DNA of 28,025 nt from an uncultured Dehalococcoidaceae bacterium (GCA_964353385.1 CAYGVP010000001.1:1-28025), one strand, 5' to 3'. Numbered from the stretch's first letter, positions 6,500-26,806 are shown. The notes: generated by a model from the sequence alone, not told the origin. Program-made: numbers and translations.

Positions 6500-6712
6500 A
6501 TGGAAAACGCATTGGAGAATCACTACCCGCAATATCTTACTACCGGGGCGGTAGCCCGGCACTGCGGCGTGAGTAAAGTTACCGTATTGAGGTGGATTGA
6601 AAAAGGCAATCTGGTTGCCTTCCGGCTGCCGAGCGGACAGAACCGAATACACAGAGATGAGTTCTTCAGTTTCGCAGAGAAACATAAAATTCCGCTGGGT
6701 AACGGTCACTAG
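6500..6712 (+). CDS. Small excisionase/BldC-like (MerR-type HTH_17) DNA-binding protein, copy 1
   Basis: YLTTGAVARHCGVSKVTVLRWIEKGNLVAFRLPSGQNRI; SD AGGAGG at 6488-6493 supports the ATG at 6500. Confidence 0.88.
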   Translation: MENALENHYPQYLTTGAVARHCGVSKVTVLRWIEKGNLVAFRLPSGQNRIHRDEFFSFAEKHKIPLGNGH

Positions 6713-6836
6713 TAACTCCCCGGGAAAACAAGTACAGTCAAGACTTCAACTCACATTTAAGAGTATCCAATCATCACACATTTTTTGGCAAAAATATATT
6801 CCGTTTTAAGGAAAAGCATATTTATCGCAAAACCTC

Positions 6837-6902
6837 TTGTGATTTATCTGTGAAGTTTTAGATTAACGTTGTGACCTGGTTGTGACAGCCCATTTATATA
6901 CT
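6837..6902 (+). promoter_or_regulatory. Phased direct-repeat operator plus -10 upstream of second HTH gene and pilin
   Basis: TTGTGA 6837, CTGTGA 6848, (weak site near 6858), TTGTGA 6869, TTGTGA 6880; TATACT at 6897 begins 11 bp after the last repeat. Confidence 0.7.
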
Positions 6903-6963
6903 CCAAATATAACAAGCATTGCAAACACCAAATTTATTGACAGTTCCGATTGTCTAGAAAAAC

Positions 6964-7227
6964 ATGGTTATGCGGAATGATGCAAAACAGGAGGTTACCT
7001 TGCTTAAAACAATCGAACAATTAAACCAGGAATACATATCAGTCGGTTTCATTGCGAAGCACTGCGGTGTGAGCAATACTACCGTTCTGCGGTGGATCGG
7101 CGCCGGGCAGATACCCGCCTTCCGCCTACCCGGCGGGCATTACCGGATAGGCAGAGAGGACTTATCTGAATTCCTAGCCAGGTACGGAATGCCTGCCGGC
7201 AATAAAACACATGAAAGCTATGAATAG
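6964..7227 (+). CDS. Small excisionase/BldC-like HTH_17 DNA-binding protein, copy 2
   Basis: YISVGFIAKHCGVSNTTVLRWIGAGQIPAFRLPGGHYRI; paralog of 6500-6712. The true start may be slightly downstream. Confidence 0.85.
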   Translation: MVMRNDAKQEVTLLKTIEQLNQEYISVGFIAKHCGVSNTTVLRWIGAGQIPAFRLPGGHYRIGREDLSEFLARYGMPAGNKTHESYE

Positions 7228-7317
7228 AACCGTGATTCGTACCTGCATTATTAATAATTAATGATAAGGAGCGTTATGAACAACAAAAATAATCAAAAAA
7301 TAACAGGAGGTTTTAAA

Positions 7318-7683
7318 ATGCGTAGATGTTTTAGGAAATTCCGCAAATTAGAAAAAGGTTTTACTCTTGTTGAACTGCTTATCGTCGTGGCGATACTGGG
7401 GGTATTGTCCGCCGTCGTCCTGCCTAACGTAATCGGGTTAGCCGATGAAGGGCAGGTTGAAGCCGCCAAGGCCGAATTCGTAACGGTGCAAACGGCGATG
7501 GATACGATGATGGCGAAAGCCCATATTACCACAGTTACAGCTACAGCGGCAACGGGTAATATGTCATCCTTCCCTATCGGACACCCACTGTATCCAAACT
7601 ATTTGAGAACAGCAAACACACAGGGTACTTATTCCTGCGATCCAACCGGTCTGGTTGAACAGGTAACTACCAGTTATGAATAA
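7318..7683 (+). CDS. pilA: Type IV major pilin (prepilin N-terminal cleavage/methylation motif)
   Basis: Basic 14-aa leader MRRCFRKFRKLEKG|FTLVELLIVVAILGVLSAVVLP with Glu5; SD AGGAGG before the ATG at 7318; mature protein 107 aa. Confidence 0.9.
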   Translation: MRRCFRKFRKLEKGFTLVELLIVVAILGVLSAVVLPNVIGLADEGQVEAAKAEFVTVQTAMDTMMAKAHITTVTATAATGNMSSFPIGHPLYPNYLRTANTQGTYSCDPTGLVEQVTTSYE

Positions 7684-7713
7684 TTAAGCATCTGGTTAAT
7701 AAATTGCTACAGA

Positions 7714-7735
7714 TTGCTAATTAATGCATTAGCAA
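7714..7735. promoter_or_regulatory. 8-6-8 palindrome between pilA and the PAS kinase
   Basis: TTGCTAAT-TAATGC-ATTAGCAA. Confidence 0.35.
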
Positions 7736-7787
7736 AACCTTCCGAGGAGCGGCTTGAGTTTATCAGGCAAGAGACAGGTGAAGGATA

Positions 7788-10700
7788 ATGAATATGAGCC
7801 CACAGCGAATACAAAAGCGGGGAAGTAATATTTCAAGTGCTACCACATCAGCCATTAAACGGATACAGAAGCACGGGAACGGTAGCAAATTAAGGCGGCA
7901 TGAACAGGTTGAAAGAGCGCTGCGAGAATCGGAGGAGAAGTTCAGGAACCTGTTCGATAATGCCAGAGATATGATTGTCCTGGTCGATACAGAAACCGGA
8001 ACAATACTGGATATAAACACGGCCGGATGCAACCTGCTGGGTCTGCCTAAGGAAAAAATAATAGGTAGACACCAGAGTGAACTTCATCCTCCGGAACTTG
8101 CCGATAAGTATAAGCGACTCTTTCAGGACCATGTTCAAAGAGGGGGTAATGTCAACGATTATATCGTCGTCCAGAGGGCTGACGGCGCACAGATACCTAT
8201 GGACGTTTCCGCCAGCGCCGCGAAGCTGGCAGATAAAACAATTATTCAGGGGATTTTCCGCGATGTTACCGAACGCGCGAGGATAGAGAAGACTTTACAA
8301 GAATCGGAGGAAAAGTTCTCTAAGGCTTTCCATGCCAGCCCGGAAGCGATAGGCATTGTCACAGAAAAAGACGGAAAATTTATCGATGTAAATGAAAGTT
8401 ATGTACGGATGACCGGCTACTCCAGGGAAGAATTGATAGGCACCACTACAAACACACATAACTGGGTGAGACCAGAAGACCACACTAAAATGCAAAAGAT
8501 AATGCAGGAACAGGGCAGGATTTACAACGAAGAATTTGACTACCGTACGAAATCAGGCGAAATCCGCACGAGGCTGTTTTCGATAGAAACTATCACCATA
8601 AATGGCGAGCTGTGCAGAATCGGCGTTTCGACAGATATCACCGAGCGGAAGCGGGCGGAGGAAGCACTACAGAAAGAGCGGGCTTTCCTTAGCAGCATTC
8701 TCACCGGCATTCAGGACGGCATTACCGTCCTCGATAATAAGCTCAATATTATCAGTGCGAACAAAACAGCGGAAAAGTGGTTCGCACATGGTATGCCACT
8801 TATCGGCAAAAAGTGTTATGAGGCTTGTCACAACCGGAGCAAGCCGTGTGAAGCCTGCCCCACAATGCAGACTCTAGAGACTGGCAAAGCTGCCAATCAA
8901 GTTGTCCCCAGACATAGTCCTGATGGCATGATTACCGGCTGGTCTGAACTTCATACTTTTCCAATCTTCGATACGCAGAAAGGGGAAATAACCGGCATTA
9001 TAGAATATGGGCGCGATGTTACCGCGCGGAAGCAGGCGGAGGAGGCTTTACGAGAATCGGAGGAAAAGTTCTCCAAGGCATTCCATGCCATCCCCGAGGC
9101 CGTCGCCATTTGCACCCTGAAAGACGGCATATTCCTTGAAGTGAACGATAGCTTTATCTCCTTCAACGAATATACCCGTGAAGAGGTAATCGGGCATGAA
9201 ACCAAAGAGTTAAATATCTGGGTAAATCCCGGCGACCGCTACCGGATAAAACAGCTAGTGGAGAAACGCGGCCATTTTGAAAATGAAGAGTTTTTATTCC
9301 GGAGCAAATCAGGCGAGATGCGTAACGTTTTACTATCGGCCGATGTGATTAATTTCGGCGGTAAACCCTGTATGCTGACCATCGGCAATGACATTACCAA
9401 GCGGAAGAAAATGGAAAATGCTTTAAAAGAGTCTGAGGAAAAGTTCTCCAAGGCTTTCCATGCCAGCCCGGAAGCGATTGCCATTGCCACAGCAAAAGAC
9501 GAAAAGCTTATCGATATAAATGAAAGTTATACGCAGATAACCGGCTACTCCAGGGAAGAATTGATAGGCAACACTTCAACCTCCGTGCATATCTGGGCAA
9601 GCCCTGAAGACCACACTAAAATGCGCAAGATGATGCAGCAACAGGGCAGGATTTACAACGAAGAATTTGACTACCGTACGAAATCAGGCGAAATCCGCAC
9701 GAGGCTGTTTTCGCTGGAACCTATCACCATAAATGGAGAGCCGTGCACAATCGGCGTTTCGATAGATATCACCGAGCGTAAGATGATGGAAAACGCATTA
9801 AGAGAAAGGGAGAAGAGGTTTAGCGATATCGCCTTGAACACTCTAGAGTGGATTTGGGAGGTTGATGTTAATGGGAAATACACTTACTCGAGTCCTGTTG
9901 TTGAAAAGATTCTGGGGTATAAACCCGAGGAAATACTTGAGAAATACTTTTATTCCTTTTTCCTTCCTGAAGAGCGGGAGGAATTAAAGAAAGCAGCGCT
10001 TGAAGTATTTGCCCAAAAACAGCCGTTCAATGGATTCATCAACCGTAACATACACAAAAACGGTAAAACAGTCGACTTTTTGACAAGTGGGGTCCCCATA
10101 ATTGATAAGGATGGAAATCTCCTCGGATACAGAGGCGTAGATACCGATATCACCGAACGCAAGGCAATGGAACGGGTAATAAGAGAATCGGAGGAAAAGT
10201 TTTCTAAGGCTTTCCATGCCATACCTGAACAGGTCACTATAGTCAGAATGAAAGACGGCATATTCATCGACGTTAATGAAAGTTTCTGCCGCAATAACGG
10301 GTACACCCGCGAAGAAGTAATCGGCCGTAAAAGGGAGGAATTAAATCTCTTAATAGGTCAAAGCCAGCGGGAACAGTTTATGAAAATAGTAAAAGAACAA
10401 GGCCACGCTGAGAATATCGAACTTGAATGCAGGGACAAATCAGGCGAAACACGTACACTATTGTTTTCCTCCGATATTATCAACCTCGGCGGTGAGCCCT
10501 GTCAATTGACTATCGTCAATGACATTACCAAGCGGAAGCAAGGAGAGCAAAAACTGCAACAGGCCATGGCCGAACTGGAATCATCCGGCGCCAAACTACA
10601 GGCTACCAACAAAGAACTGGAGAGTTTCAGTTACTCTGTTTCCCACGACCTGCGGTCGCCTTTGAGGAGCATTGACGGCTTCAGCCAAGCGTTGCTGGAA

Positions 10701-11273
10701 GACTATTTGGATAGACTTGATGAAAAAGGCCAGGACTATTTACACCGCTTACGCAGTGCCAGCCAGAAAATGGGCGAACTGATTGACGGTCTGCTTAAGC
10801 TATCCCGCCTGACAAGATGGGAAATGCACCATGAGAAAGTGGATTTAAGTTCGCTCGCGAATGAGATTGCCGCCAGGCTCCAGGAAACAAATCCGGAGCG
10901 CAACGTTAAGTTCATCATAGGCAGCGACCTGAAAGCTAACGGCGACCCGCAGATGTTGAGAGTCCTGGTGGAAAACCTATTCGGCAACGCCTTTAAGTTT
11001 ACAAAAAATACAAAACAAGCCCTTGTAGAGTTCGGCAGTATTACCGAAGGTGAAAGAAAAACCTTTTTTATTAAGGATAACGGCGCCGGATTCGATATGG
11101 CTTTCAAAGATAAACTTTTTGGCGCCTTCCAGCGCCTTCACGATGCGGCTGAATTTCCCGGCACCGGTATCGGTTTAGCCACGGTGCAGCGGATTATTAA
11201 TCGGCACGGCGGCAGCATCCGCGCGGAAGGAGCGGTAGGAGAGGGAGCTATTTTCTATTTTTCTCTAAATTAA
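7788..11273 (+). CDS. Cytoplasmic multi-PAS (7 PAS/PAC) sensor histidine kinase, Cph1/BphP-type transmitter
   Basis: Repeated (S)EEKF...D(I/V)TERK PAS units; H-box ELESFSYSVSHDLRSPL; N-box ENLFGNAFKF; DNGAGF; GTGIGL; no TM segment seen. Confidence 0.95.
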   Translation: MNMSPQRIQKRGSNISSATTSAIKRIQKHGNGSKLRRHEQVERALRESEEKFRNLFDNARDMIVLVDTETGTILDINTAGCNLLGLPKEKIIGRHQSELHPPELADKYKRLFQDHVQRGGNVNDYIVVQRADGAQIPMDVSASAAKLADKTIIQGIFRDVTERARIEKTLQESEEKFSKAFHASPEAIGIVTEKDGKFIDVNESYVRMTGYSREELIGTTTNTHNWVRPEDHTKMQKIMQEQGRIYNEEFDYRTKSGEIRTRLFSIETITINGELCRIGVSTDITERKRAEEALQKERAFLSSILTGIQDGITVLDNKLNIISANKTAEKWFAHGMPLIGKKCYEACHNRSKPCEACPTMQTLETGKAANQVVPRHSPDGMITGWSELHTFPIFDTQKGEITGIIEYGRDVTARKQAEEALRESEEKFSKAFHAIPEAVAICTLKDGIFLEVNDSFISFNEYTREEVIGHETKELNIWVNPGDRYRIKQLVEKRGHFENEEFLFRSKSGEMRNVLLSADVINFGGKPCMLTIGNDITKRKKMENALKESEEKFSKAFHASPEAIAIATAKDEKLIDINESYTQITGYSREELIGNTSTSVHIWASPEDHTKMRKMMQQQGRIYNEEFDYRTKSGEIRTRLFSLEPITINGEPCTIGVSIDITERKMMENALREREKRFSDIALNTLEWIWEVDVNGKYTYSSPVVEKILGYKPEEILEKYFYSFFLPEEREELKKAALEVFAQKQPFNGFINRNIHKNGKTVDFLTSGVPIIDKDGNLLGYRGVDTDITERKAMERVIRESEEKFSKAFHAIPEQVTIVRMKDGIFIDVNESFCRNNGYTREEVIGRKREELNLLIGQSQREQFMKIVKEQGHAENIELECRDKSGETRTLLFSSDIINLGGEPCQLTIVNDITKRKQGEQKLQQAMAELESSGAKLQATNKELESFSYSVSHDLRSPLRSIDGFSQALLEDYLDRLDEKGQDYLHRLRSASQKMGELIDGLLKLSRLTRWEMHHEKVDLSSLANEIAARLQETNPERNVKFIIGSDLKANGDPQMLRVLVENLFGNAFKFTKNTKQALVEFGSITEGERKTFFIKDNGAGFDMAFKDKLFGAFQRLHDAAEFPGTGIGLATVQRIINRHGGSIRAEGAVGEGAIFYFSLN
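8301..9782 (+). repeat. Intragenic duplication of a PAS module (8301-8650 vs 9429-9782)
   Basis: 8509-8582 is identical to 9640-9713 (74 bp); the flanks are highly similar, with a one-codon indel. Confidence 0.9.
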
Positions 11274-11278
11274 GGAGT

Positions 11279-11740
11279 ATGAAGATGACTACAGCAATGA
11301 ATGAAACAATTTTACTCGTGGAGGACAACCCGGACGACATCGAACTGACAAAGCGGGCATTCGGCAAAAACAACATCGCCAATAACCTGGTGGTTGCCCG
11401 CGACGGCGTCGAGGCTCTGGACTATCTTTTTTGCCGGGGTATCTACGCCGAGAGAAATATTAAAGATATACCGCGGCTGATTCTCCTGGATTTGAAATTG
11501 CCCAAGATGGATGGCCTGCAAGTGCTGGAATGCCTGCGTGCCGAAGAGCACACCAAGCTGGTGCCTACAGTAATCCTGACCTCTTCAAGAGAGGAGCAGG
11601 ACTTGATCAGCGGCTACAAGTACGGAGCCAATAGTTACGTTCGTAAGCCGATTAATTTTAACGAATTCGTTGATGCAGTACGGAATATCGGGCTCTACTG
11701 GCTGCTGATAAACGAGCCGCCGCCGGACAACCACCATTGA
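11279..11740 (+). CDS. Rcp1-like single-domain response regulator
   Basis: ILLVEDNPDDIEL, LILLDLKLPKMDG, VILTSS.EE.D, GANSYVRKP. SD spacing favours the ATG at 11285 as the start. Confidence 0.93.
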   Translation: MKMTTAMNETILLVEDNPDDIELTKRAFGKNNIANNLVVARDGVEALDYLFCRGIYAERNIKDIPRLILLDLKLPKMDGLQVLECLRAEEHTKLVPTVILTSSREEQDLISGYKYGANSYVRKPINFNEFVDAVRNIGLYWLLINEPPPDNHH

Positions 11741-11771
11741 TTACCCGAGTAATTAAATTTTATTAGTACCG

Positions 11772-14471
11772 ATGAAGGTGAGCAGCATGGAAAATAAAAG
11801 AATATCCGTCCTATTAATAGAAGATAGCATCGACGATGCTGAGTTGATTAAGAGGAAACTGGAGAAATCTATTAGTACCAGATTCCAGGTCACAATAGCG
11901 CGTAAGCTTGAGGACGGGCTGAAACAGGCGGAAATAAATGAGCCGGACCTGATTGTCTCCGACCTGGGATTACCGGACAGCCACGGACTCGATACAGTTA
12001 CGAAAATTCTTCTGGCGGTGCCGCACGTACCACTGGTGGTGTTAAGCGGTTTTGATGACGAAGAAACTGGCATCAAGGCGGTGCAATCCGGGGCGCAGGA
12101 CTATCTGGTGAAAGGGCGACTGGACGACGCTCAACTGGAACGGCCTATCTATTATTCCATCGAGCGAGCACGGTTACAGCACGAACTGGAACAGAACTCA
12201 CAGGAAATTTCCAAGCTGCAAGTCAATTTATTTAAAATCCTGGAGAATAGCACCGATGCAACAGTTGTAGTTGGCGAAAATGGCAGTATACTTTTTACCA
12301 ATCCTGCAGTCGAATCTCTTTTCGGGCAGAAGCAAAAAGAACTATTGAACCAGTCGTTCCAGTATCCGCTGGTAGGCGGAAAGACATCAGAGATTGAAAT
12401 TTACCGAACCGATGGTAAGAAAAACATTGCCGAAATGAATGTTGTGAATATCTCCTGGGAAGGCAGGCCGGCATGCCTGGTTTCCATGCACAACATTACA
12501 AAACGCAAGGCAATGGAAGAAGCCCTGCGGACAAGCGAGGAAAAATACCGCAATATCGTTGAACTATCCCATGAAGGGATTATCATAACAAATCTCCAGG
12601 GAGTAATCACGTCATGTAACATGACTTTCTTAAGCATGATTGGGTTGCCCCAAGAGGAAGTTGCGGGGAAACACTTTCAGGATATCCCGAATATAAATAT
12701 CAAAGACCTTCCTACCTACATAAAGATGTTCGCGTCTCTTTTACAGGGTAAGAAAAATCCACCGCTGGAAATATCATGGAAAATTGACAACGGGCCAGCC
12801 GGAATATTCGAGCTTAAGTCTAACTTGATGAAATCGAACGGTGATATCTTCGGGGTTCAGACAATCGTTACCGATATAACCGAGCGGAAGCGGGCGGAGA
12901 AGGCTTTACAAGAATCAGAGGAAAAGTTCTCTAAGGCTTTCCTCAACAGCCCGGAGTCAATCGTCATTTCCGATATAGATGACGAAGTTATTATTGAAGC
13001 CAACGACACGTTTTTGCGTTTTTCCGGCTATACCCGTGAAGAAATTATCGGCAAAAAGGCGAGCGAGCTTAATACCTGGGCTAATCCGGAAGAACGCGCC
13101 GAAGTAATAAAGATACTAAAGCAGGAGGGAGTAGTCCGTAACAGAGAATGCCATTTCCGTATGAAATCTGGAGAGAAAAGTATACAGCTTTTTTCCGCGG
13201 AAATCATTAATATAGGCGACCGGCCGTGTATGCTCTCGGTAACTACTGATATAACCGAACGTAAGAAAATGGAGGAAGACCTGAAACAAAGCGAGGAAAA
13301 GTACCGAGAGCTTATCAATACCTCTATCGATGCCATTATCTCCGCGGACCCAAAGATGAGAGTCACCATTTGGAACCATGGGGCAGAGAAAATCTTTGGA
13401 TATACAGAAAAAGAGATGATGGGGCAATCAGTGTTAAAAATAGTCTCCGAAACATACGGAAAAGGGATGGTCGAAGGCTTCGGTCATCTCCATAAAACAG
13501 GCTCGAGCGCGGTATCGGAGAAAATAACAGAAACCATCGCTATTAGAAAAAATGGTACCCAAGTACCCATTGAATTATCAATATCAACCAGAAAAGCCGG
13601 CGATACCTATATTGCCACGGCAATTATCAGAGATATTACCGCGCGTAAAGAGGCGGAGGAAAAGCTGCGAAAAATCGACCAGATGAAAACCGAGTTTCTG
13701 TCTAACGTATCCCACGAACTGCGCACGCCGCTGCAATCCATCAGCGGCTTTACTAAATTGATTATGACCGGCAAGGTGCCCGACTCCGCCACCCAGCAGG
13801 AATTTCTCCAGATTATCGATACAGAGATTTCCCATCTGGGTAATCTAATCAACAGTCTGCTGGATATGTCGCGGCTGGAATCCGGGCGATTTCAAATTTA
13901 CAAGAAGAACGTATCAATGCGCGATATCATCATTGACTGCATGAAGACATTACATGGTCTCGCCCGCGAGAAGAATATTACTCTAAGTGAAAACCTGCCG
14001 AAGCAATTGCCTGAAATGGAAGCTGATAATGAAAGAGTGCGGCAGGTAATCCTTAACCTGGTTGGTAACGCAATTAAATTCAGCGACCACGGCGGGAGCG
14101 TTAATATCAAGGTGACGGAGCAAAATAGCGAGTTATTGTTCCAGGTTATAGACAACGGCACTGGAATAAAGAAAGAGGCTATGCCCCATCTTTTCGAGAG
14201 ATTTTACCGCGCCGAGGGGGAAACGGTAAAAGGCGGTACGGGGTTGGGACTTTATATATCCAAGCAAATTATTGATGCACACAGAGGGCAAATCTGGGCA
14301 GAAAGCAAATACGGCGAGGGGAGTACTTTCAGCTTTACCCTGCCCTTTAACAACAAAGGAGGAGAAAAACATGGGAAAGAAAATTCTAATAATCGAAGAC
14401 GATCCGGCAACGCAAAGACTGGTAGATTACTCGCTAAAGCAGGAGGGGTACCAGATAATCACGGCCTCTAA
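11772..14471 (+). CDS. Hybrid kinase: N-terminal REC, 4 PAS, HisKA, HATPase
   Basis: VLLIEDSIDD..LIVSDLGLPDS.G..GAQDYLVK; H-box FLSNVSHELRTPL; NLVGNAIKFS; DNGTGI; GTGLGL. The tail reads through into the next gene. Confidence 0.93.
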   Translation: MKVSSMENKRISVLLIEDSIDDAELIKRKLEKSISTRFQVTIARKLEDGLKQAEINEPDLIVSDLGLPDSHGLDTVTKILLAVPHVPLVVLSGFDDEETGIKAVQSGAQDYLVKGRLDDAQLERPIYYSIERARLQHELEQNSQEISKLQVNLFKILENSTDATVVVGENGSILFTNPAVESLFGQKQKELLNQSFQYPLVGGKTSEIEIYRTDGKKNIAEMNVVNISWEGRPACLVSMHNITKRKAMEEALRTSEEKYRNIVELSHEGIIITNLQGVITSCNMTFLSMIGLPQEEVAGKHFQDIPNINIKDLPTYIKMFASLLQGKKNPPLEISWKIDNGPAGIFELKSNLMKSNGDIFGVQTIVTDITERKRAEKALQESEEKFSKAFLNSPESIVISDIDDEVIIEANDTFLRFSGYTREEIIGKKASELNTWANPEERAEVIKILKQEGVVRNRECHFRMKSGEKSIQLFSAEIINIGDRPCMLSVTTDITERKKMEEDLKQSEEKYRELINTSIDAIISADPKMRVTIWNHGAEKIFGYTEKEMMGQSVLKIVSETYGKGMVEGFGHLHKTGSSAVSEKITETIAIRKNGTQVPIELSISTRKAGDTYIATAIIRDITARKEAEEKLRKIDQMKTEFLSNVSHELRTPLQSISGFTKLIMTGKVPDSATQQEFLQIIDTEISHLGNLINSLLDMSRLESGRFQIYKKNVSMRDIIIDCMKTLHGLAREKNITLSENLPKQLPEMEADNERVRQVILNLVGNAIKFSDHGGSVNIKVTEQNSELLFQVIDNGTGIKKEAMPHLFERFYRAEGETVKGGTGLGLYISKQIIDAHRGQIWAESKYGEGSTFSFTLPFNNKGGEKHGKENSNNRRRSGNAKTGRLLAKAGGVPDNHGL

Positions 14472-14778: not shown

Positions 14779-14787
14779 GGAAAAGGC

Positions 14788-18554: not shown

Positions 18555-20065
18555 ACGGCGAAAAGGGGCAAGCCCTGCCTTTAGCCATCATGGCGCTTAC
18601 CATAGGCACACTGCTAATTGCGCCATTCCTGGGGCATGCCGGCAGCAGTATCATCGGGTCCAGGACATATGGCGAAGCTATAGACTACCGGAACGCTTGC
18701 GATGCAGGAGTGGAGCACGCCATCTGGAGTCTCTTTTATGACGAGCTGGGAGACCTGATACCCAATCCCGGTGACCAGATTACCTATCAATTACCGGAGA
18801 CAGTCAATGGTGTAACAACTTCCGTTACAATAACCTCTAACGCAAGCGGCGGCGGGGATATAGGGAGCATCAATAAAACCGTTATAGACAGATTCGATTT
18901 TGATGGGGCATACTGCAATACGCCTGATATGATACATGTCTCCGGCAATATTTACGCTATAGCTTATAATGGACCAGCTAACGATGGATTCGTCAAGACA
19001 GTGGAAATAGCCCTGGATGGAAGCATCACCAACAGCGCTATCGATACGCTGGAGTTCGATACGAGCGATTGTTATAATCCCAATATTATTTTCGTATCTA
19101 ACAATATTTACGCTATTGCTTACAGAGGGCCGAGCAACGACGGCTTTATCAAGACGGTATCTATTGCCTCCAATGGCGACATAGGCAACAGCGTTATCGA
19201 CACTCTTGAGTTTGATACCAGCGACTGCTACGAACCGGATATTACCTTTGTATCCGGCATATATTACGCTATCGCTTATAGGGGACCAGCTAGCGACGGC
19301 TTTCTTAAGACGGTAACGATAGCCGCCAATGGCGATATAAGCAATGCCGCCATCGACACATTGGAGTTTGACCCCAGCAATTGCTACGAACCGGATATCA
19401 TCTACATATCCCCGACATATTTTGCGATTGCATATCGGGGCGTAAGCAACGACGGCTTCCTGAAGACAGTGACCATTGCTGCTAATGGCGATATAGGCAA
19501 TAGCGTTATCGACACTCTGGAATTCGATACCAGCGACGGAGCTTACCCCTATATCATGAATATTTCCGGGAACACCTATGCCATAGTGTATACAGGCTCG
19601 AGTTCCGACGGTTTTATCAAAACGATGACAATTTCTGGTGTCGGTGATATATCCAACAGCGTTATCAGCAGCTTCGAATTCGACCCCGCCAACGGGCAGG
19701 AGCCTCAAATAATCCATATCGTAGGGAATACTTTTGCTATAGCCTATGACGGTCCCCAGAATGACGGATACCTGATAACCCTGCCGATAGAACCAAACGG
19801 CACCATTCCCGGTACGATAACCGATACCTTTGAATACGACACCAGCAACGGATATTTTCCGGATATCGTCGCTATCTCGGAAGGAATCGTCGCAATCGCT
19901 TATGACATCCCATCATCAAGGGGAAAGCTGGTTACTATTGGTGTTAATACCATTAGCGCCTTTAATGCTTATCGAATTAGAGTCACCGCCGGCGATACCG
20001 CTATTCAAGCCAGTGTAGTTACTGATAATACTTCAACATATATAACTGCCTGGCAGGTGCAATAA
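18551..20065 (+). CDS. Large PilX/GspK-like minor pilin with an inserted 52-aa repeat (predicted beta-propeller) domain
   Basis: MNGEKG|QALPLAIMALTIG (no Glu5, as in PilX/GspK), DAGVEHAIW, six full and two half repeats, C-terminal YRIRVTAG..IQASV..ITAW. Confidence 0.85.
   Translation: MNGEKGQALPLAIMALTIGTLLIAPFLGHAGSSIIGSRTYGEAIDYRNACDAGVEHAIWSLFYDELGDLIPNPGDQITYQLPETVNGVTTSVTITSNASGGGDIGSINKTVIDRFDFDGAYCNTPDMIHVSGNIYAIAYNGPANDGFVKTVEIALDGSITNSAIDTLEFDTSDCYNPNIIFVSNNIYAIAYRGPSNDGFIKTVSIASNGDIGNSVIDTLEFDTSDCYEPDITFVSGIYYAIAYRGPASDGFLKTVTIAANGDISNAAIDTLEFDPSNCYEPDIIYISPTYFAIAYRGVSNDGFLKTVTIAANGDIGNSVIDTLEFDTSDGAYPYIMNISGNTYAIVYTGSSSDGFIKTMTISGVGDISNSVISSFEFDPANGQEPQIIHIVGNTFAIAYDGPQNDGYLITLPIEPNGTIPGTITDTFEYDTSNGYFPDIVAISEGIVAIAYDIPSSRGKLVTIGVNTISAFNAYRIRVTAGDTAIQASVVTDNTSTYITAWQVQ
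18863..19945 (+). repeat. 156-bp/52-aa tandem coding repeats
   Basis: Consensus (I/Y/T)YAIAYxGPxNDGFxKTVxIAxNGDIxNSxIDTLEFDTSDCYEPDIxxVSxx; full copies span 18950-19885. Confidence 0.92.
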
Positions 20066-20100: not shown

Positions 20101-20664
20101 ATGAAAAAACGCGGAGCACTCATCATCATATTAATATTAGCGCTGCTGGTGGTCTATTATATTTTCGGCATGGATTACCTGAAGCAGCGGAACCAGAAAG
20201 AAAACCTGAAGGCTCAGATTTCTGAAGATACGGCGACGCTGTCTTTAATTCCCCTACCGCCTGCTGACCTCGAGCAGCAACTGGCTGACGCTGAAGATAG
20301 CCTGTGGGCAATAAAAGACACTTTGAAGATAGATACGAATATTACCCGAATCGTCAACGGCATTCTTAGATTGGGAAACGAGACCGGGGTCAAGGCGATA
20401 CCGCTATCAACGCAACCCTGGGTAATCGAGCATATTTCAAATCAGGACTACTCGGTTTTTCGCATTGACATAGCGATTACCGGAAACTTTACGCAAATGG
20501 CCGAGTTTTTAAAGCGCCTGGAAAACGGCGAACCTGAAACGCTTGTCCTTGAGTATTCGAAGGTCGAAAAAGCACCCGGCTCTTTCCTATCTGAAAGCCC
20601 GGGCGAAGGACCAATAAGCGCTAATATCAGACTAGCCATTTACACTCTACCTGTTATTGGTTGA
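20101..20664 (+). CDS. PilO-like pilus alignment protein
   Basis: N-terminal TM, coiled coil, then VFRIDIAITGNFTQMAEFLKRLE (PilO/GspM ferredoxin-like fold motif). Confidence 0.75.
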   Translation: MKKRGALIIILILALLVVYYIFGMDYLKQRNQKENLKAQISEDTATLSLIPLPPADLEQQLADAEDSLWAIKDTLKIDTNITRIVNGILRLGNETGVKAIPLSTQPWVIEHISNQDYSVFRIDIAITGNFTQMAEFLKRLENGEPETLVLEYSKVEKAPGSFLSESPGEGPISANIRLAIYTLPVIG

Positions 20665-20686: not shown

Positions 20687-22198
20687 ATGTATGTCGCACT
20701 AAATATAAGCAGCCATAACATCAAATTACTATCGATGAAAGGTCGCCGGGTAGGAACATGGGCAACAGCCGACCTCGCTGAAGGCCTGGTGCATGACGGC
20801 CTGATTACGCAGCCCGAAGCTGTTGGAGAGGCGATAAATTCATTATTCAAGTCGACCGGGATACGGAAAAACAACGTTATTGTGAGCGTCGCGGGGTTAT
20901 CCTTTACCTACCGGTTTATCAGCCTGCCACGTATAAAACCCGCGTTACTTGAGGAAGCTCTCTTACGTGCCGCGAAAAAAGAGATATCTTTGCCTTTAGA
21001 AGAACTCTATATCTCGTGGAAACCGATACATAGCAAGGGTGAGGAGCAGGAATATTTTATCATCGGCGTGCCGCGTAATCTGGTCGATGCCACTGTTCAG
21101 ACTTTAAAAATAGCAAATGTGGAGCCTTACCTCATGGACGTGCGGCCGCTGGCTCTAGCGCGGGCAGCTCACCAGAACGATGCAATCGTTGTCAATATGG
21201 AGCCCGATTGTTTTGATATTGTCTTCATCACACAGGGTTTACCGACAGTAATACACACGATAAGCCCGAGGAGTGACGGAGCTACGATAGAAGATAATAT
21301 CCACCGCCTGGCGGACGAATTAACGAAAACGGCCGCCTTTTACCAAAGCAATCACCCTGATATACAACTGAATGGGTCGCTTCCTTTATTGCTTGCCGGA
21401 GAACTGGCAGCCGATACAAGAACCAGCCAGATGCTTCAATCTGAAATTGAATACCCGATCGAACCACTGATTCCACCGGTAGAATTTCCTGATAGATTAC
21501 CAATCGCTTCTTATGCCACCAATATCGGGCTGGCTACCAAAAGAACACCGTTAAAGTCACTTGACCACGGTAGTGTGTCACGCTTTTTTGATATTGATGT
21601 AAATATCTTAGAGGGGAAATACCGTAAGCCTAAAGCCAAACCTATCCCAATAAAGAACTGGTTATTGACATCTCTTCTTATAGCGGTTATCGCATGTCTA
21701 TTCCCGCTTTATCAGGCCAAGAGTCAAATAGCTGTAGAAAACAGCTCGCTGGAAGCAGCTTTGGATAACATTTACCGCGAACTTAATCTGGCAACCCTGG
21801 TAAACGCAGAAACCATGTTGACCCAGGGAAAAATCAGCGAGACTAATGCAATGGCTGAATCTCTAGAAACCACCAATAAGAATATTTTCAGCGTCAGGGG
21901 CAATTTCGATACGGGATTACAGAAGGTCACCCGGGACATGCCGCTAAACACCTCATTTACATCAATAGAAATCAAAAAAGATGTTATTGTAATTAAGGGA
22001 GAAACAGATAGCGTTTTTACGGTAATCGAATATGCGAAGGCATTGGAGGCCGAGGGCGTATTTACCCAAGTTCGTATTACAGACCTGGATGAAACATATA
22101 TTGCAGTTCCCGGGACAGAAGAAACCGAGGAGCCTTCTTTGCTTCAAGTGTATATTATTACATTCGAAATCCAAGCACAATTACCGCTACCTGAATAA
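20687..22198 (+). CDS. PilM-PilN fusion protein
   Basis: N-terminal PilM/actin-like region (LNISSHNIKLL, DVRPLALARA, LLAGE), TM WLLTSLLIAVIACLFPLY, coiled coil, and PilN-like C-terminus (MPLNTSFTSIEIKKDVIVIKGET..EYAKALE..FTQV). Confidence 0.8.
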   Translation: MYVALNISSHNIKLLSMKGRRVGTWATADLAEGLVHDGLITQPEAVGEAINSLFKSTGIRKNNVIVSVAGLSFTYRFISLPRIKPALLEEALLRAAKKEISLPLEELYISWKPIHSKGEEQEYFIIGVPRNLVDATVQTLKIANVEPYLMDVRPLALARAAHQNDAIVVNMEPDCFDIVFITQGLPTVIHTISPRSDGATIEDNIHRLADELTKTAAFYQSNHPDIQLNGSLPLLLAGELAADTRTSQMLQSEIEYPIEPLIPPVEFPDRLPIASYATNIGLATKRTPLKSLDHGSVSRFFDIDVNILEGKYRKPKAKPIPIKNWLLTSLLIAVIACLFPLYQAKSQIAVENSSLEAALDNIYRELNLATLVNAETMLTQGKISETNAMAESLETTNKNIFSVRGNFDTGLQKVTRDMPLNTSFTSIEIKKDVIVIKGETDSVFTVIEYAKALEAEGVFTQVRITDLDETYIAVPGTEETEEPSLLQVYIITFEIQAQLPLPE

Positions 22199-22210
22199 GG
22201 AGATAACCAG

Positions 22211-23284
22211 ATGCACATCAACGACCTGTTAAAGCTGGCTACAAAACGGAACGCTTCTGACCTGCATTTGAAGGTTGGCAATTATCCCGTTTTGCGCATT
22301 AATGGAGAACTCATATTACAGAAAGATTCAACCATAATCACACCGAAGGATATGGATATCATCTTCAATGAAGTAACTACCGAGACGCAAAGAGAAACAT
22401 ACGCCAGAGAACTAGAAGCGGATTTCGCTTATCAGGCTCAAGACGTCGGCCGCTTCCGTATCAATATCTCCCAGCAGGAAGGAACGATAAGTCTGACCTG
22501 CCGTCCGATCAGAGTGGAATTACCGACCATAGAAGACCTGGGACTGCCAGAAACATGCAAAACACTTGCCTTAAAGAGTAATGGCCTGGTAATAGTAACC
22601 GGGCCTACCGGCTGCGGTAAGTCGACGACCCTCGCCGCTATGATAAACTACCTCAACCATACTGTCAGTCGCAAGATTATCACTATCACAGACCCGATAG
22701 AATACTTGCATCATGATATCAAGTGCATCATTTCCCAGCGAGAAATTGGCCGAGATACCCGGTCTTTCGCCAATGCTTTAAAACACGCCATGCGTCAAGA
22801 CCCCGATGTCATAATGGTAGGAGAAATGCGAGACCTTGAGACAATGGCGACCGTACTTACCGCGGCGGAGACCGGACACCTGGTATTGACAACGCTTCAT
22901 ACACTGGGCGCGGCGGAGGCGATTGACCGTTTCATAGATGTTTTTCCGCCGCACCAGCAACAGCAGGTGCGCATTCAGTTATCCATCGTACTCGAAGGAG
23001 TTATTTACCAGCTATTAGTACCTCGCGCCGATAATTCAGGACGTTTGCCTGCCGTTGAAGTAATGCTGGCATTACCTGCCATCAAGAATCTCATACGCGA
23101 AGGGAAAACGTACCAGATGATGAACACTATACAAACGGGAACACAGTATGGCATGCAAACCCTGAACCAATCGCTGGCCGATCTCTGTAAAAGAGGGATA
23201 ATAACCTGCGAACAGGCTATGACCAGGAGCAGTGATACCGAAGAACTATCCGAGATGCTCGGTAGACAGATAGCACATCACTAA
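22211..23284 (+). CDS. pilT: Type IV pilus retraction ATPase PilT
   Basis: ASDLHL, GPTGCGKSTTLAAMI, QREIG.DT.SF..AL..AMRQDPDVIMVGEMRD.ET, AAETGHLVLTTLHT, AIKNLIRE (AIRNLIRE motif), GMQT. Confidence 0.93.
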   Translation: MHINDLLKLATKRNASDLHLKVGNYPVLRINGELILQKDSTIITPKDMDIIFNEVTTETQRETYARELEADFAYQAQDVGRFRINISQQEGTISLTCRPIRVELPTIEDLGLPETCKTLALKSNGLVIVTGPTGCGKSTTLAAMINYLNHTVSRKIITITDPIEYLHHDIKCIISQREIGRDTRSFANALKHAMRQDPDVIMVGEMRDLETMATVLTAAETGHLVLTTLHTLGAAEAIDRFIDVFPPHQQQQVRIQLSIVLEGVIYQLLVPRADNSGRLPAVEVMLALPAIKNLIREGKTYQMMNTIQTGTQYGMQTLNQSLADLCKRGIITCEQAMTRSSDTEELSEMLGRQIAHH

Positions 23285-23335: not shown

Positions 23336-24046
23336 ATGGAAGTAATCAGACACAAGGAAATGAACAAAATAAATAACAAACTTCTATCAGCAGTCTCCCA
23401 TGAGTTACGTGCCCCGCTGGCGGCGATCAAGGGCTACTCAACGATGTTACTCGACTATTTACCCAAGCTTACGGCTGAAGAAACCAAGGAATATATTCAA
23501 TCTATAGATAATGCCACGGACAGGATGACCCGGCTCGTTGATGACCTTATGGACACGTCACATCTGGAGGAAGGAAGGCTCAACCTGGAAAAAACCCCAG
23601 TTGATATGGAAATCCTTATCAAAGCAACTGTTAAAGAAGCCGAAACCAGAACCAACCATCATGAAATCTTAACAGCGCTGAACCATAATTTGCCCAGAGT
23701 AAACATCGACCCAAAACGTATCCAGCAAGCGCTGGATAATCTAATCGATAATGCTGCCAGACTATCACCTCAAGGGACAGAAATTTTAATATCAGCGACC
23801 GCTGATGATAAAGAACTAGAGATAGGCGTTATCAGCGGCGACCCGGGCATACCTGACAGCGAGTTTTGCAGTATTCCCGAACTTATGTGTAGAATGGGTA
23901 AAACAACCTCACCGAGAGATAACGGCATGAATCTAGAATTATATATTTGCCAGCGGCTGATTGAAGCTCATGGCGGTCGAATATGGGCAGAGAGTATCTT
24001 AGGGAAAGGAACCAGTATTAAATTTACACTTCCATTAACTTCGTAA
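23336..24046 (+). CDS. Sensor-less histidine kinase-like protein with intact H-box but degenerate ATP-binding domain
   Basis: VSHELRAPLAAIKG; N-box DNLIDNA; G1 reads SGDPGI, F box IPELMCR, G2 GMNLEL; AHGGRIWAES..GKGT retained. Confidence 0.85.
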   Translation: MEVIRHKEMNKINNKLLSAVSHELRAPLAAIKGYSTMLLDYLPKLTAEETKEYIQSIDNATDRMTRLVDDLMDTSHLEEGRLNLEKTPVDMEILIKATVKEAETRTNHHEILTALNHNLPRVNIDPKRIQQALDNLIDNAARLSPQGTEILISATADDKELEIGVISGDPGIPDSEFCSIPELMCRMGKTTSPRDNGMNLELYICQRLIEAHGGRIWAESILGKGTSIKFTLPLTS

Positions 24047-24145: not shown

Positions 24146-24844
24146 ATGCCAAAAAAGAAAGCTCTAATACTGGTAGTGGATGATGACATCCGCATGTTGC
24201 GCATGATGAAGCGTATGCTGGAGCTGGAAGGTTTTGAAGCTACCACGGCTAACTGCGGCGAAGCTGCCTTAAAAACATTTGAAAAAGAAACCCCTGCGCT
24301 CGTGCTGCTTGATATTATGATGCCGGACATGGATGGATATGTAGTATGCCGACGTATTAGAGAGTTCTCCCAAGTCCCGATTATTATGGTTACCGCCAGA
24401 GGCGAAGATAAAGAAAAGGTGGAGGGCTTAAATATAGGCGCCGATGATTACGTTACCAAACCTTTTTCCGCCAGTGAACTGGCTGCCCGCGTCCGGGCGG
24501 TTCTGCGGCGTGTTAGCAGCCAAGAAATAACTCAAGAAGCTGTTTTTCGCTACAAGGATATGGTAATCGATTTTACATCACGGCGGGTTTTAGTTAATAA
24601 CCAGGAATTAAAATTAACCTCAACCGAATATAAGATGCTGTCTTACATCTCGCTTAACGCCGGGCGCGTGGTCACGCCGGACCAGCTATTGAACAAGGTC
24701 TGGGGTGAGGAATATGTTGGCGCGGCACACCTGCTCCAGGTAAATATCGCCAGATTGAGGAAAAAACTGGGCGATGATGCCAAGAAACCTGACTATATCC
24801 AGACCCGCCCGGGTATCGGATATATCATGTCAAAACTGCCTTAA
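24146..24844 (+). CDS. OmpR/PhoB-family (KdpE-like) response regulator
   Basis: ILVVDDD, LVLLDIMMPDMDG, GADDYVTKPF..EL.ARV; winged helix LTSTEYKML..GRVVT..LL..VWG..V.IARLRKKL..YI.T.PGIGY. Start set at the ATG at 24146. Confidence 0.95.
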   Translation: MPKKKALILVVDDDIRMLRMMKRMLELEGFEATTANCGEAALKTFEKETPALVLLDIMMPDMDGYVVCRRIREFSQVPIIMVTARGEDKEKVEGLNIGADDYVTKPFSASELAARVRAVLRRVSSQEITQEAVFRYKDMVIDFTSRRVLVNNQELKLTSTEYKMLSYISLNAGRVVTPDQLLNKVWGEEYVGAAHLLQVNIARLRKKLGDDAKKPDYIQTRPGIGYIMSKLP

Positions 24845-24920: not shown

Positions 24921-25027
24921 TCCGCTATGTAATGCCGCTGTTTCCGCGTATTTTACCTGTCAAAAACTCCCTACATATTTGCCATCCAAAGGCTACCGGC
25001 ATACCCATTTAGATATAATTGATTTTA

Positions 25028-25082
25028 ATGTGTTAGATTATGTCCTTTTTGTGATACCTGCGTGATATCCACTATATAAATT
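25028..25082 (+). promoter_or_regulatory. Phased direct-repeat operator plus -10 upstream of the Ubl-membrane gene
   Basis: ATGTGT 25028 (weak), TTGTGA 25049, GCGTGA 25060; TAAATT at 25077 begins 11 bp after the last repeat. Confidence 0.5.
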
Positions 25083-25190
25083 AACAATAGGGTAGATGGA
25101 GGGTTCTATTTACTTGAGGTGTAACTATTCTTAATAGGGACAAATTAACACAAGAGTATAACTTTACCCTCGGCTAGAACTGAAAAACAC

Positions 25191-25955
25191 ATGATAGAAA
25201 TTAAATTTAAAAACAACCGTGAAGAAGCAAATATAGCCGGGCGTTCCATCGCGGAAGCACGGGGGTTATATCAATCGGAGTTTGGCATCGCGGAAAAAGC
25301 CGTCGCCGTATTGAACGGCGAGAAAATCGGCTCCGCCGCGGAAGCTTTTGCTATCCTGATGGATGACGATAATCTGGTATTCAAAACAGTAAAAGGCAAC
25401 AAAGCAATGTACCTAGTCGGCGCACTACTGCTGACAATGGCTGCCACCGTCGGGTTGTTCGCCTCCGGGTACACTAACGCTACGGCTACGATTAATGCAG
25501 GAATAGCAGACTATGATTTCGCCTTAGTTACGGCCAACACATCAAGTATACCTTCATGGACCGCTCACGGGTTGCAGAAAAATTCCACCGGTTCCGGTAC
25601 CCTCTTCGATATTAATACTCAAACATCAGGTTATACCGGCGATATCATCGCTACTATTTCTCTGGCTAATGTCGACTCTCTCATCAAGGTCTACCGCAAT
25701 CTGACGCTATCCATAGAGGTCCGGGATTCTTTAAACAATCTGATGGATATTAATAGCGACAATATTTCAGATATTAACGACTATACTCTCCTGACGCTGG
25801 AAAACAGCGTGGTGTCATTATATATCGAGCAAAACGCCGCGAGTATATATACCGTTAAACTCAGGAGCGGCTACTATATCTGCAACATCGCTCAAAGCAA
25901 CTGGTCCAGCACTGATGGGACACCATTACTGTACTGTGAAGTTGCCCAGAGGTAA
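25191..25955 (+). CDS. Hypothetical protein: N-terminal ubiquitin-like (beta-grasp) domain, TM/signal helix, extracellular beta-rich domain
   Basis: aa 1-69 IEIKF..AGRSIAEAR..F.I..AVAVLNGEK..L.DDD.LVF..KG; aa 73-93 hydrophobic; Thr/Asn/Ser-rich beta-type remainder. The SD is weak. Confidence 0.7.
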   Translation: MIEIKFKNNREEANIAGRSIAEARGLYQSEFGIAEKAVAVLNGEKIGSAAEAFAILMDDDNLVFKTVKGNKAMYLVGALLLTMAATVGLFASGYTNATATINAGIADYDFALVTANTSSIPSWTAHGLQKNSTGSGTLFDINTQTSGYTGDIIATISLANVDSLIKVYRNLTLSIEVRDSLNNLMDINSDNISDINDYTLLTLENSVVSLYIEQNAASIYTVKLRSGYYICNIAQSNWSSTDGTPLLYCEVAQR

Positions 25956-26032
25956 TTTCTCCCTTCTTAAGACGGACGGGCAATATCTCACCATCTTTTT
26001 ATCTTAACGTCAATCCTGTCTAATTGATACCC

Positions 26033-26098
26033 TTGTGATGTTTTTGTGAGGTATTGTGAGATGTTTTTGATAACTTTGTGAGTCTATTTGAGTATTGT
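26033..26098 (+). promoter_or_regulatory. Five-unit phased TTGTGA array plus -10
   Basis: TTGTGA 26033, 26044, 26054; TTTTGA 26065; TTGTGA 26076; TATTGT at 26093 begins 11 bp after the last repeat. Confidence 0.75.
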
Positions 26099-26121
26099 TA
26101 GATAGACGGGGGGTATCAAAG

Positions 26122-26367
26122 ATGATTCTGGTATGGGATAACATTAAATCCTTTCAGCGGCATCTTGAAGATATGAGGTCATTCCAAAACTCGCACATTC
26201 ACAACACACCGTTAGTGGACTTAAAAATGCTCAAGGATATGCCTATGCCGTTCGATGTCACAATACCCCGTGAAACAGGTCTCATTAAAAGCGTTTATGA
26301 TGCCAGAGGTAAATTGATACTCGTCCCTATATGGAGAGTTGACCTTTCTAGATGCTCACAGAATTAA
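26122..26367 (+). CDS. Small hypothetical protein (81 aa)
   Basis: ATG at 26122 after a GGGGGG SD-like run; open and co-oriented with the downstream receiver; no family recognised. Confidence 0.55.
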   Translation: MILVWDNIKSFQRHLEDMRSFQNSHIHNTPLVDLKMLKDMPMPFDVTIPRETGLIKSVYDARGKLILVPIWRVDLSRCSQN

Positions 26368-26383
26368 ACAGGTGATATAAGAA

Positions 26384-26806
26384 TTGGCGACTGGAAATGC
26401 GACTCTACCCGATGTTAAAGAACGCCAGCGTATCCTGGTAATAGACAATAACCAGGATATGTTGATGTTACTTAATCGCACGCTTGAACTAGAGGGCTTC
26501 GATACCGTTATCTCTGTTGATTACGATGAAGCATTGGCCATGCTGGATACAATCAATCCAGATATGGTCATCATGGATACCTATTTGCCGGATATCGATA
26601 GTTTGAGAATCCTGGATATCATTAGAGAACGTTCCAACGTACCTATCATTGTTATCACCGCGGATAACGAACTGGAGACGCTAAAGACAGTCTTCGCGCA
26701 CGGCGCCGATGATCTTATACGCAAGCCATTTGGGATAAAACCGTTTATAGCGAGGATAAAAGCTAAGCTAAGGCGCTACCGGAGAGAAATCCCCGCACCT
26801 TCTTGA
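26384..26806 (+). CDS. Stand-alone OmpR-type receiver domain
   Basis: ILVIDNN, MVIMD (phospho-Asp kept), VITA, GADDLIRKPF..FIARIKAKLRR; TTG start with SD AGGTGA; no DNA-binding domain. Confidence 0.88.
   Translation: MATGNATLPDVKERQRILVIDNNQDMLMLLNRTLELEGFDTVISVDYDEALAMLDTINPDMVIMDTYLPDIDSLRILDIIRERSNVPIIVITADNELETLKTVFAHGADDLIRKPFGIKPFIARIKAKLRRYRREIPAPS

Follow-up and report, generated by a model that had tools for sequence, protein, structure and literature searches.

A type IVa pilus operon with embedded cytoplasmic two-component genes in an uncultured Dehalococcoidaceae bacterium

Background

A stretch of 28,025 nucleotides (nt) of DNA from an uncultured Dehalococcoidaceae bacterium (GCA_964353385.1 CAYGVP010000001.1:1-28025; hereafter the window, meaning the whole of this stretch) carries the genes of a type IV pilus, with genes for histidine kinases and response regulators set among them. 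Such an arrangement raises the question of whether the signalling genes serve the pilus and, if they do, whether they act on the transcription of the pilus genes, on the pilus motor or on both. The locus is read here as a type IVa pilus operon with a dedicated cytoplasmic two-component circuitry that would govern both the making and the firing of the pilus, a reading to which the sequence evidence lends a probability of roughly 0.55. Control probably acts on transcription and, through a stand-alone receiver (REC2) encoded directly before the extension ATPase gene pilB, on the PilB motor; we infer the motor step and the protein that binds the promoter boxes described below.

Direct phospho-control of a pilus motor has so far been shown only for orphan receivers of Xanthomonas, and the present locus is a compact and conserved test case. 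In the ColS/ColR/EmvR system of Xanthomonas oryzae, one kinase feeds a DNA-binding regulator as well as a receiver-only protein acting on PilB (PMC11973254). Both EmvR and DrdR, which are receivers without an output domain, bind PilB with an effect on its ATPase activity; DrdR, from X. campestris, also binds PilT, and it enhances the activity of both ATPases (PMC11973254, PMC13507683). Receiver binding to PilB is thus already known, and an earlier note on this DNA, which stated that characterised type IV pilus control uses PilS-PilR, Chp or cyclic di-GMP (c-di-GMP) systems, went too far: receiver-to-PilB control was published in 2025-2026, and both a Che operon and a c-di-GMP motif in PilB are present in this genome. 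The literature on pilus regulation in Dehalococcoidia or Chloroflexi yielded nothing specific. The Dehalococcoidia are a monoderm group common in sediments.

Methods

The window is the entire contig C1 of the metagenome-assembled genome G000, a 1.57-Mb assembly that is 70% complete, and its DNA was found again only in DNA metagenomes of sediment and lake, with no RNA run listed for the locus; the host is an uncultured, monoderm Dehalococcoidales bacterium of sediment. Gene calls were made by Pfam and NCBIfam scans together with direct reading of the sequence. Orthologous PilB loci (75-93% identity) were taken from 13 genomes, 12 of them of genus g1 and one (G019) of genus g3. The window proteins were mapped onto the loci of these 13 relatives by tblastn, and the gene order was compared as far as the contigs extend.

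Results and discussion

Signalling genes tied to the pilus operon

The gene cluster described in the earlier note was confirmed, with small corrections. The whole pilus and signalling cluster is co-directional on the + strand, and the genes that carry the argument are the following.

6501-6713, + strand: helix-turn-helix (HTH) gene a, HTH_17 (excisionase/BldC-like), called by sequence reading as a paralogue of 6964-7227, without a Pfam scan of its own; a second HTH_17 tblastn match lies upstream in G001, G009, G002 and G012
6964-7227, + strand: HTH_17 gene b, head of the pilA operon (Pfam PF12728, E 1.7e-11)
7318-7683, + strand: pilA, major pilin (Pfam N_methyl; cleavage between G and FTLVELL; TIGR02532 32.5 bits against a cut-off of 16.3)
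7788-11273, + strand: HK7PAS, kinase of 1161 amino acids (aa) with seven PAS units, HisKA and HATPase_c; H, N, G1 and G2 boxes intact
11279-11740, + strand: REC1, phytochrome-response-regulator-like single-domain receiver (Pfam REC; PDB matches)
11772-14471, + strand: RECPASHK, REC-4xPAS-HisKA-HATPase_c kinase of 899 aa (Pfam); H, N, G1 and G2 boxes intact
14371-14778, + strand: REC2, stand-alone receiver of 135 aa (Pfam REC only), 9 nt before pilB
14788-16473, + strand: pilB, extension ATPase (Pfam T2SSE 1e-123, MshEN; NF053729 60.7 bits against a cut-off of 38)
24146-24844, + strand: OmpR/PhoB-family response regulator (Pfam REC 112 bits and Trans_reg_C 86 bits)
26095-26367, + strand: 90-aa protein of unknown function, conserved together with REC3
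26384-26806, + strand: REC3, stand-alone receiver (Pfam REC)

The signalling genes were said to occupy about 7.1 kb between pilA and pilB with short or overlapping junctions, and they do so: the block extends from 7788 to 14778 (6,991 nt, or 7.0 kb), with junctions of 5, 31, -101 (an overlap) and 9 nt, followed by 10 nt between pilB and pilC at the end of the run from the first kinase (7788-16473). There is no intrinsic terminator after pilA, where a hairpin without a U-tract is found. An intrinsic terminator lies 3' of REC3 at 26845-26890 (hairpin z = -2.6).

The synteny survey, for which a lack of synteny had been fixed in advance as the refuting outcome, found the same gene order in 13 genomes wherever the contigs reach. 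REC2 stands directly 5' of pilB in 12 of the 13, and the REC-PAS kinase precedes REC2 in all of these. All 10 loci that extend far enough contain the 7-PAS kinase, REC1 and the REC-PAS kinase, and the order HTH-HTH-pilA heads all four loci that reach it. At the other end, the OmpR-type regulator comes after the pilus genes in 11 of the 11 loci that reach it, with the 90-aa gene and REC3 after it in eight relatives. Identity to G001 is about 80% for REC2, PilB, PilT and the OmpR-type regulator, the best conserved of the proteins, and 51-56% for the kinases. With gene order conserved across 13 relatives from two genera, and with neighbouring genes that overlap or almost adjoin, the sequence comparison supports a tie between signalling and pilus genes.

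A receiver that accompanies PilB

The motif residues of REC2 are DD 10-11, D53, S83 and K105. Metagenomic clusters with an identity to REC2 of at least 76% number more than 120; nearly all are 131-143 aa long (one has 159 aa) and consist of the receiver domain only. A class-wide search returned only a few receivers with an identity of 50% or more. The best matches are free receivers or the REC part of REC+AAA_31 proteins, again encoded in front of a pilB (G070, G207, C102). The C102-type paralogous locus comprises pilA', a soluble kinase, a REC+AAA_31 protein (ParA/MinD-like ATPase), pilB', pilC', two minor pilins, a pilin-like gene, pilO' and pilMN'; the G000 copy is L054, and the locus is whole in G001 (L061) and G013 (L062). 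Its pilB' product is 58% identical to the PilB of the window.

The receiver and the motor ATPase diverge in step. Identities for REC and PilB, respectively, are 58% and 58% between the window and C102, 63% and 63% between the window and G070, 54% and 60% between the window and G207, and 84% and 80% between C102 and its paralogue in G001. In G207 the REC-pilB pair occurs without other pilus genes. In a tree of REC domains, the REC2 orthologues and the receivers of the REC+AAA_31 proteins group together at 85/79, apart from the other receivers of the genome, with G070 and G207 just outside this group and in no firm position. PilB is thus accompanied by a REC2-type receiver that diverges along with it, in other families of the Dehalococcoidia as well, and the two form an old module.

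A further variant is found in the JGI contig Ga0646001_000031 (L063), where 7543-16060 holds two units, each of a PAS kinase and an overlapping REC2-type receiver, the two receivers being 91% identical. One unit precedes HTH-pilA and the other precedes pilB; the 7-PAS kinase and REC1 are absent from this contig, and no TTGTGA boxes stand before its HTH gene. Together with the paralogous loci, this variant points to a conserved core of kinase, REC2-type receiver and PilB, to which the first kinase with REC1 is an add-on.

The stop codon of the REC-PAS kinase lies 101 nt into REC2 (14371-14471), REC2 being in the +1 frame. The overlap of kinase and receiver is seen again in the relatives, in G070 and in the JGI contig, with a kinase tail of varying length, and the ribosome site of REC2 (AAGGAGG-N7/8-ATG) is conserved in the alignment of the 13 loci. 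The overlap is read as a kinase gene that lacks a stop at the end of the catalytic domain and runs on into REC2. A programmed frameshift fusing the kinase to REC2 was considered and rejected in view of REC2's own conserved AAGGAGG-ATG, the lack of a conserved slippery site and the variable kinase tail.

The circuitry might also be dedicated to the pilus and yet act on transcription only, with REC1, REC2 and REC3 as phosphate sinks or relay intermediates that tune the OmpR-type regulator. Single-domain receivers are often phosphate sinks. In G001, G009 and G004, where the OmpR-type regulator stands as an orphan, it must draw its phosphate from the upstream kinases, and the prediction of a complex lent no support to a REC2-PilB contact, nor did it give evidence against one. 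A mere sink is, however, hard to reconcile with a receiver far more conserved than its kinases, with its co-divergence with PilB across paralogues and families, with the fusion of a REC to a TadZ/CpaE-like ATPase module in the paralogue and with the lone REC-pilB pair of G207. Control of transcription alone is accordingly considered unlikely.

Phased promoter boxes and their candidate binders

The transcriptional arm of the preferred reading, in which both transcription and motor are controlled, centres on four promoter regions carrying phased TTGTGA boxes, two of them upstream of the HTH genes and two downstream of the OmpR-type gene, where a further gene of the locus is found.

6303-6340, + strand: phased TTGTGA boxes in the promoter region of HTH gene a; the equivalent site is the same in G001 and G009
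6837-6885, + strand: phased TTGTGA boxes (6837, 6869, 6880; CTGTGA at 6848), 11 nt before TATACT; conserved in G001, G009 and G012
25049-25065, + strand: TTGTGA and GCGTGA 11 nt apart, before TATATAA, 5' of the 254-aa gene
25191-25955, + strand: 254-aa membrane protein of unknown function, with one transmembrane (TM) segment and no Pfam or NCBIfam match
26033-26081, + strand: four to five TTGTGA boxes with 10-11 nt phasing, before the 90-aa gene

TTGTGA occurs 13 times on the + strand, and 10 of these occurrences fall in four intergenic stretches (about 1 kb in total), spaced by 10, 11, 22 or 32 nt. Before the 90-aa gene, boxes occupy exactly the same places in seven of eight relatives inspected, some of them as variants with one mismatch. 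The phasing reported earlier is thus genuine, extending to four promoters and conserved in relatives. Only seven phased TTGTGA clusters were found in the 1.57-Mb assembly, and the four outside the window precede an HTH_17 gene that is followed by a receiver (C26), two small Cys-rich open reading frames (ORFs) resembling Zn ribbons (C32, C93) and a masked stretch (C106).

Hexamers in direct repeat, spaced by one turn of the helix (11 nt) and abutting the -10 element, are typical of sites of the PhoB/OmpR family, and because of this layout the OmpR-type regulator is the first candidate for binding the boxes. The regulator scores under all the NCBIfam equivalog cut-offs, its nearest models being RpaB, MtrA and PhoB. 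The HTH proteins would be nearly as good a candidate, since three of the seven clusters head HTH_17 genes (two in the window, one on C26).

In that case the small HTH_17 (BldC/excisionase-like) proteins would occupy the boxes and regulate their own genes, and the OmpR-type regulator would have other targets. BldC is known to bind direct repeats head-to-tail. The PhoB/OmpR-family layout stands against this, as do the two boxed promoters directly 3' of the OmpR-type gene, which drive non-HTH genes, and the HTH genes of the paralogous locus and the JGI variant, which lack TTGTGA boxes. Self-regulation by the HTH proteins is held to be a serious contender, at somewhat less than even odds. The 254-aa protein gave no tblastn match in the relatives and is poorly conserved.

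Kinases, receivers and possible inputs

Neither of the two PAS kinases, nor the 236-aa kinase core described below, contains a TM-like segment on reading of the sequence. The eleven PAS inputs previously counted are indeed present as seven plus four units, but five of them are duplicates of one subtype, and the number of PAS units varies among the relatives. The subtype comprises the units A2, A4, A5, A7 and B3, with 45-78% identity, and is common to both kinases. The suggestion of light sensing is not upheld, no LOV-type NCRFL Cys motif being present in either kinase; c-type heme motifs were not found in the PAS units, and Pfam reported no PHY/GAF chromophore module in the 7-PAS kinase. The third PAS unit of this kinase carries a C-x3-C-x6-C-x2-C cluster (8814-8858, kinase residues 343-357), a possible metal or Fe-S site, and the N-terminal part of the kinase containing the cluster is missing in most relatives.

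REC1 starts 5 nt past the 7-PAS kinase and has as its top PDB matches 5brj (3e-44), 5ic5, RcpA (6e-24), RcpB and Rcp1 (1e-21), so that both sequence and position place it with the Rcp1/BRR receivers. It resembles the Cph1-Rcp1 and bacteriophytochrome-BRR pairs in its best match and in sitting behind a soluble sensor kinase; it differs in that the kinase of the window carries PAS units only.

Five of the six REC domains formerly counted lie within 6500-26806, and REC1, the receiver of the kinase, REC2, the OmpR-type receiver and REC3 all retain the phospho-acceptor Asp, the Thr/Ser and the Lys; the sixth (4997-5383) falls outside that range and has no phospho-acceptor Asp. This pseudo-receiver (+ strand) also lacks the acidic pair and adjoins a gene of the metallo-beta-lactamase fold, a pair that is found upstream of the pilus locus in G009 as well.

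A degenerate kinase core and the case for a phosphorelay

A third kinase-like gene lies between pilT and the OmpR-type regulator.

23336-24046, + strand: HK236, sensor-less kinase core of 236 aa (HisKA and HATPase_c), starting at the DHp helix with SHELRAP

The label of pseudokinase given to it earlier holds for the ATP site, in which G1 (SGDPGI, against DxGxG), F (IPELMC) and G2 (NGMNLEL, against GxGLGL) are degenerate, and not for the H box, whose His (SHELRAP) is kept. The degeneracy is repeated in G010, G016, G008 and G006 and is partial in G015, and the ORF is intact in six genomes. The phosphatase Thr that follows the His is Ala in HK236 of the window and, counting this one, in four of the five proteins of the window, G010, G016, G008 and G006; in the HisKA ExxT motif, loss of this Thr leaves phosphotransfer or sequestration as possible roles. 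Among the 11 relatives whose loci reach this position, a normal PAS kinase of 524-652 aa stands there in G007, G002 and G012, and nothing in G001, G009 and G004. Because other relatives carry either a normal PAS kinase or nothing at this place, HK236 is, as judged from the sequence comparison, a recent remnant, limited to a subclade, of the cognate kinase of the OmpR-type regulator.

The earlier note had proposed a multi-step phosphorelay. In its most explicit form, a His-Asp-His-Asp relay would run from a kinase through a receiver and the ATP-blind core, acting as a ChpT/Spo0B-like phosphotransferase, to the OmpR-type regulator. Retention of the His beside degenerate G1, F and G2 boxes in the window and four relatives, the Ala in place of the phosphatase Thr in four, and the intact ORF in six genomes are consistent with such a role. 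The core shares with ChpT of Caulobacter, Spo0B, DivL and RetS a kinase fold, a DHp His and a non-functional ATP site. It differs from these in being by sequence an HK853/WalK-type core, recently derived from a PAS kinase and confined to a subclade. Its best PDB matches are HK853-type kinases, with RetS and DivL also among the matches, and homology to ChpT by sequence was rejected, no ChpT structure matching at E <= 1e-10. Furthermore, the window has no Hpt domain, and the ordinary PAS kinase from which the core derives is still present in G007, G002 and G012. The absence of the core from G001, G009 and G004 means that it is no essential step of the conserved circuit. The multi-step phosphorelay, whose sole candidate core is absent in three and replaced by a normal kinase in another three of the 11 relatives, is therefore doubtful, and a relay through HK236 is regarded as quite improbable. 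A ChpT-like transfer role of HK236 itself is possible; it cannot belong to the conserved circuit. A two-tier kinase cascade fits the locus as well as a phosphorelay does.

Proposed control of pilus production and motor

In the mechanism proposed here, signals of the intracellular PAS type would be sensed and converted into both pilus production and motor firing. The REC-4PAS kinase would phosphorylate REC2, whose gene overlaps its 3' end, and phosphorylated REC2 would act on the neighbouring PilB ATPase, by analogy with EmvR and DrdR of Xanthomonas. The 7-PAS kinase with the Rcp-like REC1 may form an upstream tier, feeding REC1 and/or the N-terminal receiver of the second kinase. The OmpR-type regulator would bind the phased boxes and set the transcription of the HTH-pilA operon and of the two small downstream units; its partner would be a normal PAS kinase in some relatives and, in the window, the degenerate ATP-blind core.

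Several observations weigh against this mechanism. The pairing of kinases with receivers is assigned from adjacency alone. G008 (locus L040, about 13012-13261) lacks REC2 together with the 47 N-terminal residues of PilB, through either a deletion or an assembly fault. The REC tree, built on 135 columns, is poorly resolved, with weak deep nodes and intruding long branches, so that its support is moderate only. The predicted complex of PilB and REC2, made with own alignments, scored 0.00, which is counted neither for nor against binding. The position of three of the seven box clusters before HTH_17 genes may mean that the boxes belong to the HTH proteins, and the c-di-GMP motif of PilB and the Che operon of the genome allow that other inputs may dominate.

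Comparison with characterised systems helps to place the locus. The proposed dual output, through an OmpR-type regulator and a PilB-adjacent receiver, would have an experimental analogue in ColS/ColR/EmvR. REC2 is likened to EmvR and DrdR by description and not by sequence, as a phosphorylatable REC without an output domain; its binding to PilB would follow from gene linkage and co-divergence. EmvR and DrdR differ in being orphan genes outside the pilus operon, in a diderm host with PilQ and with a membrane sensor kinase. A second likeness is to TadZ/CpaE of the Tad (type IVc) systems: in the paralogous locus the REC+AAA_31 gene stands directly before the pilus ATPase gene, and REC2 shares 57-63% identity with the receiver domain of its product. 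The differences are that REC2 has no ATPase domain, that it keeps the acidic pocket and the phospho-acceptor Asp, the receiver of TadZ being atypical, and that the machine of the window is T4a-like (PilB with MshEN, PilM/N/O, PilT) and not of the Tad kind.

As in PilS-PilR, two-component genes that would control pilin transcription lie beside pilA; unlike PilS-PilR, the window has neither a membrane sensor nor an NtrC-type sigma54 activator. True PF00158 regulators were not found in five genomes, there being none in G000 and only weak matches (<=32 bits, proteins of 325-944 aa) in the relatives. CheY-like receivers also control type IV pilus motors in Pil-Chp (PilG/PilH), the cyanobacterial Pix/Tax systems and Frz, which differ in that the present locus has no CheA, CheW or methyl-accepting chemotaxis protein (MCP), the single Che operon of the genome being on C16, with no demonstrable connection to the pilus genes of the window. 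The claim that a TM sensor, PilS/PilR, PilQ and PilP are absent agrees with the Pfam scans and the reading for TM segments, and the scans of the window gave no Hpt, CheA/CheW, MCP, secretin, PilP or sigma54-activator domain. The parallel claim of no CheA, CheW or MCP is correct for the window but not for the genome, which has a full Che operon. The system is neither of the PilS-PilR nor of the Chp type.

A broader proposal, which is put forward tentatively and as rather doubtful at present, is that across the Dehalococcoidia, and perhaps more widely in monoderm or uncultured lineages, a dedicated receiver, either free (REC2) or fused to a TadZ-like ParA ATPase, is an integral and co-evolving subunit of the PilB motor of type IVa pili, and that cytoplasmic PAS kinases would switch PilB directly through phosphorylation. 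If true, the TadZ logic of Tad systems and the EmvR-type control of Xanthomonas would be joined in one ancient mechanism. The paralogue with its TadZ-like REC-ParA protein bears on the kinship of the regulatory parts of Tad and T4a machines. Since the kinases are soluble and carry PAS units only, in vitro reconstitution from a kinase, REC2 and the PilB ATPase should be straightforward, and it would reveal whether pilus extension depends on redox or metabolite signals from inside the cell.

The pilus machine and other regulatory systems of the genome

The remaining pilus genes follow pilB.

16484-17698, + strand: pilC, platform protein (Pfam T2SSF, two matches)
17698-18105 and 18102-18554, + strand: two minor pilins overlapping by 4 nt (weak N_methyl matches; N-terminal hydrophobic helix)
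18551-20065, + strand: 504-aa pilin-like protein with about seven repeats of about 52 aa (propeller-like, from sequence)
20101-20664, + strand: pilO-like gene (Pfam PilO 1.2e-4, 22.7 bits against a cut-off of 22)
20687-22198, + strand: pilM-pilN fusion (Pfam PilM_2, PilN)
22211-23284, + strand: pilT, retraction ATPase (TIGR01420 444.8 bits against a cut-off of 319)

The type IVa set is complete, with a class III prepilin, PilB-type and PilT-type ATPases, PilC and PilM/N/O. PilB scores under the PilB and GspE equivalog cut-offs (532 bits against 676 and 630), yet both are its top matches. The 504-aa pilin-like protein has no match in Pfam or NCBIfam. A secretin (PF00263) was found neither in G000 nor in four relatives that are 92-95% complete. 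The prepilin peptidase PilD (A24_N_bact and Peptidase_A24) is encoded outside the window on contig C15 of G000, in a third pilus locus that is free of signalling genes. The locus of the window is an operon for a retractile type IVa pilus that lacks a secretin, in a monoderm host.

The motor could alternatively be controlled mainly through c-di-GMP or Che proteins, the embedded kinases being neighbours with an unrelated regulatory job. Residues 11-62 of PilB pass the NCBIfam model of the MshE-type c-di-GMP motif above its cut-off and match the N-domains of PilF, PilB and MshE in the PDB, and each genome has one GGDEF protein. Contig C16 (L052, 4121-13564, - strand) holds a full Che operon, with a HAMP-PAS MCP, CheW, CheA, CheC, CheD, CheY, CheB, CheR and an HD_5 protein, and flagellin was not found in the five genomes searched. 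The synteny of the signalling and pilus genes over two genera, with overlapping genes, and the recurrence of the kinase-REC-pilB plan in the paralogous locus and in other families argue against mere neighbours. The Che operon may instead serve an ArlH/ArlI-like system on C59 (L056, 981-8114), made up of a KaiC-like protein of 238 aa and a T2SSE ATPase of 605 aa; transfer of an archaellum into Dehalococcoidia was described in a 2025 paper (PMC12488501). Control mainly by c-di-GMP or Che is thus rated as very improbable. The pair on C59 is followed by genes for a kinase, a REC-REC protein and a REC-GAF kinase, a third locus of the type IV filament kind with two-component genes of its own.

Other features of the window

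Two structured RNAs were identified outside the pilus and signalling cluster. A tRNA gene (3333-3405, + strand; RF00005, 62.7 bits) lies between the genes for D-Tyr-tRNA deacylase and CinA. A cobalamin riboswitch (27199-27347, + strand; RF00174, 50.7 bits) is located directly 5' of a Peripla_BP_2 (BtuF-like) gene that is truncated by the end of the contig.

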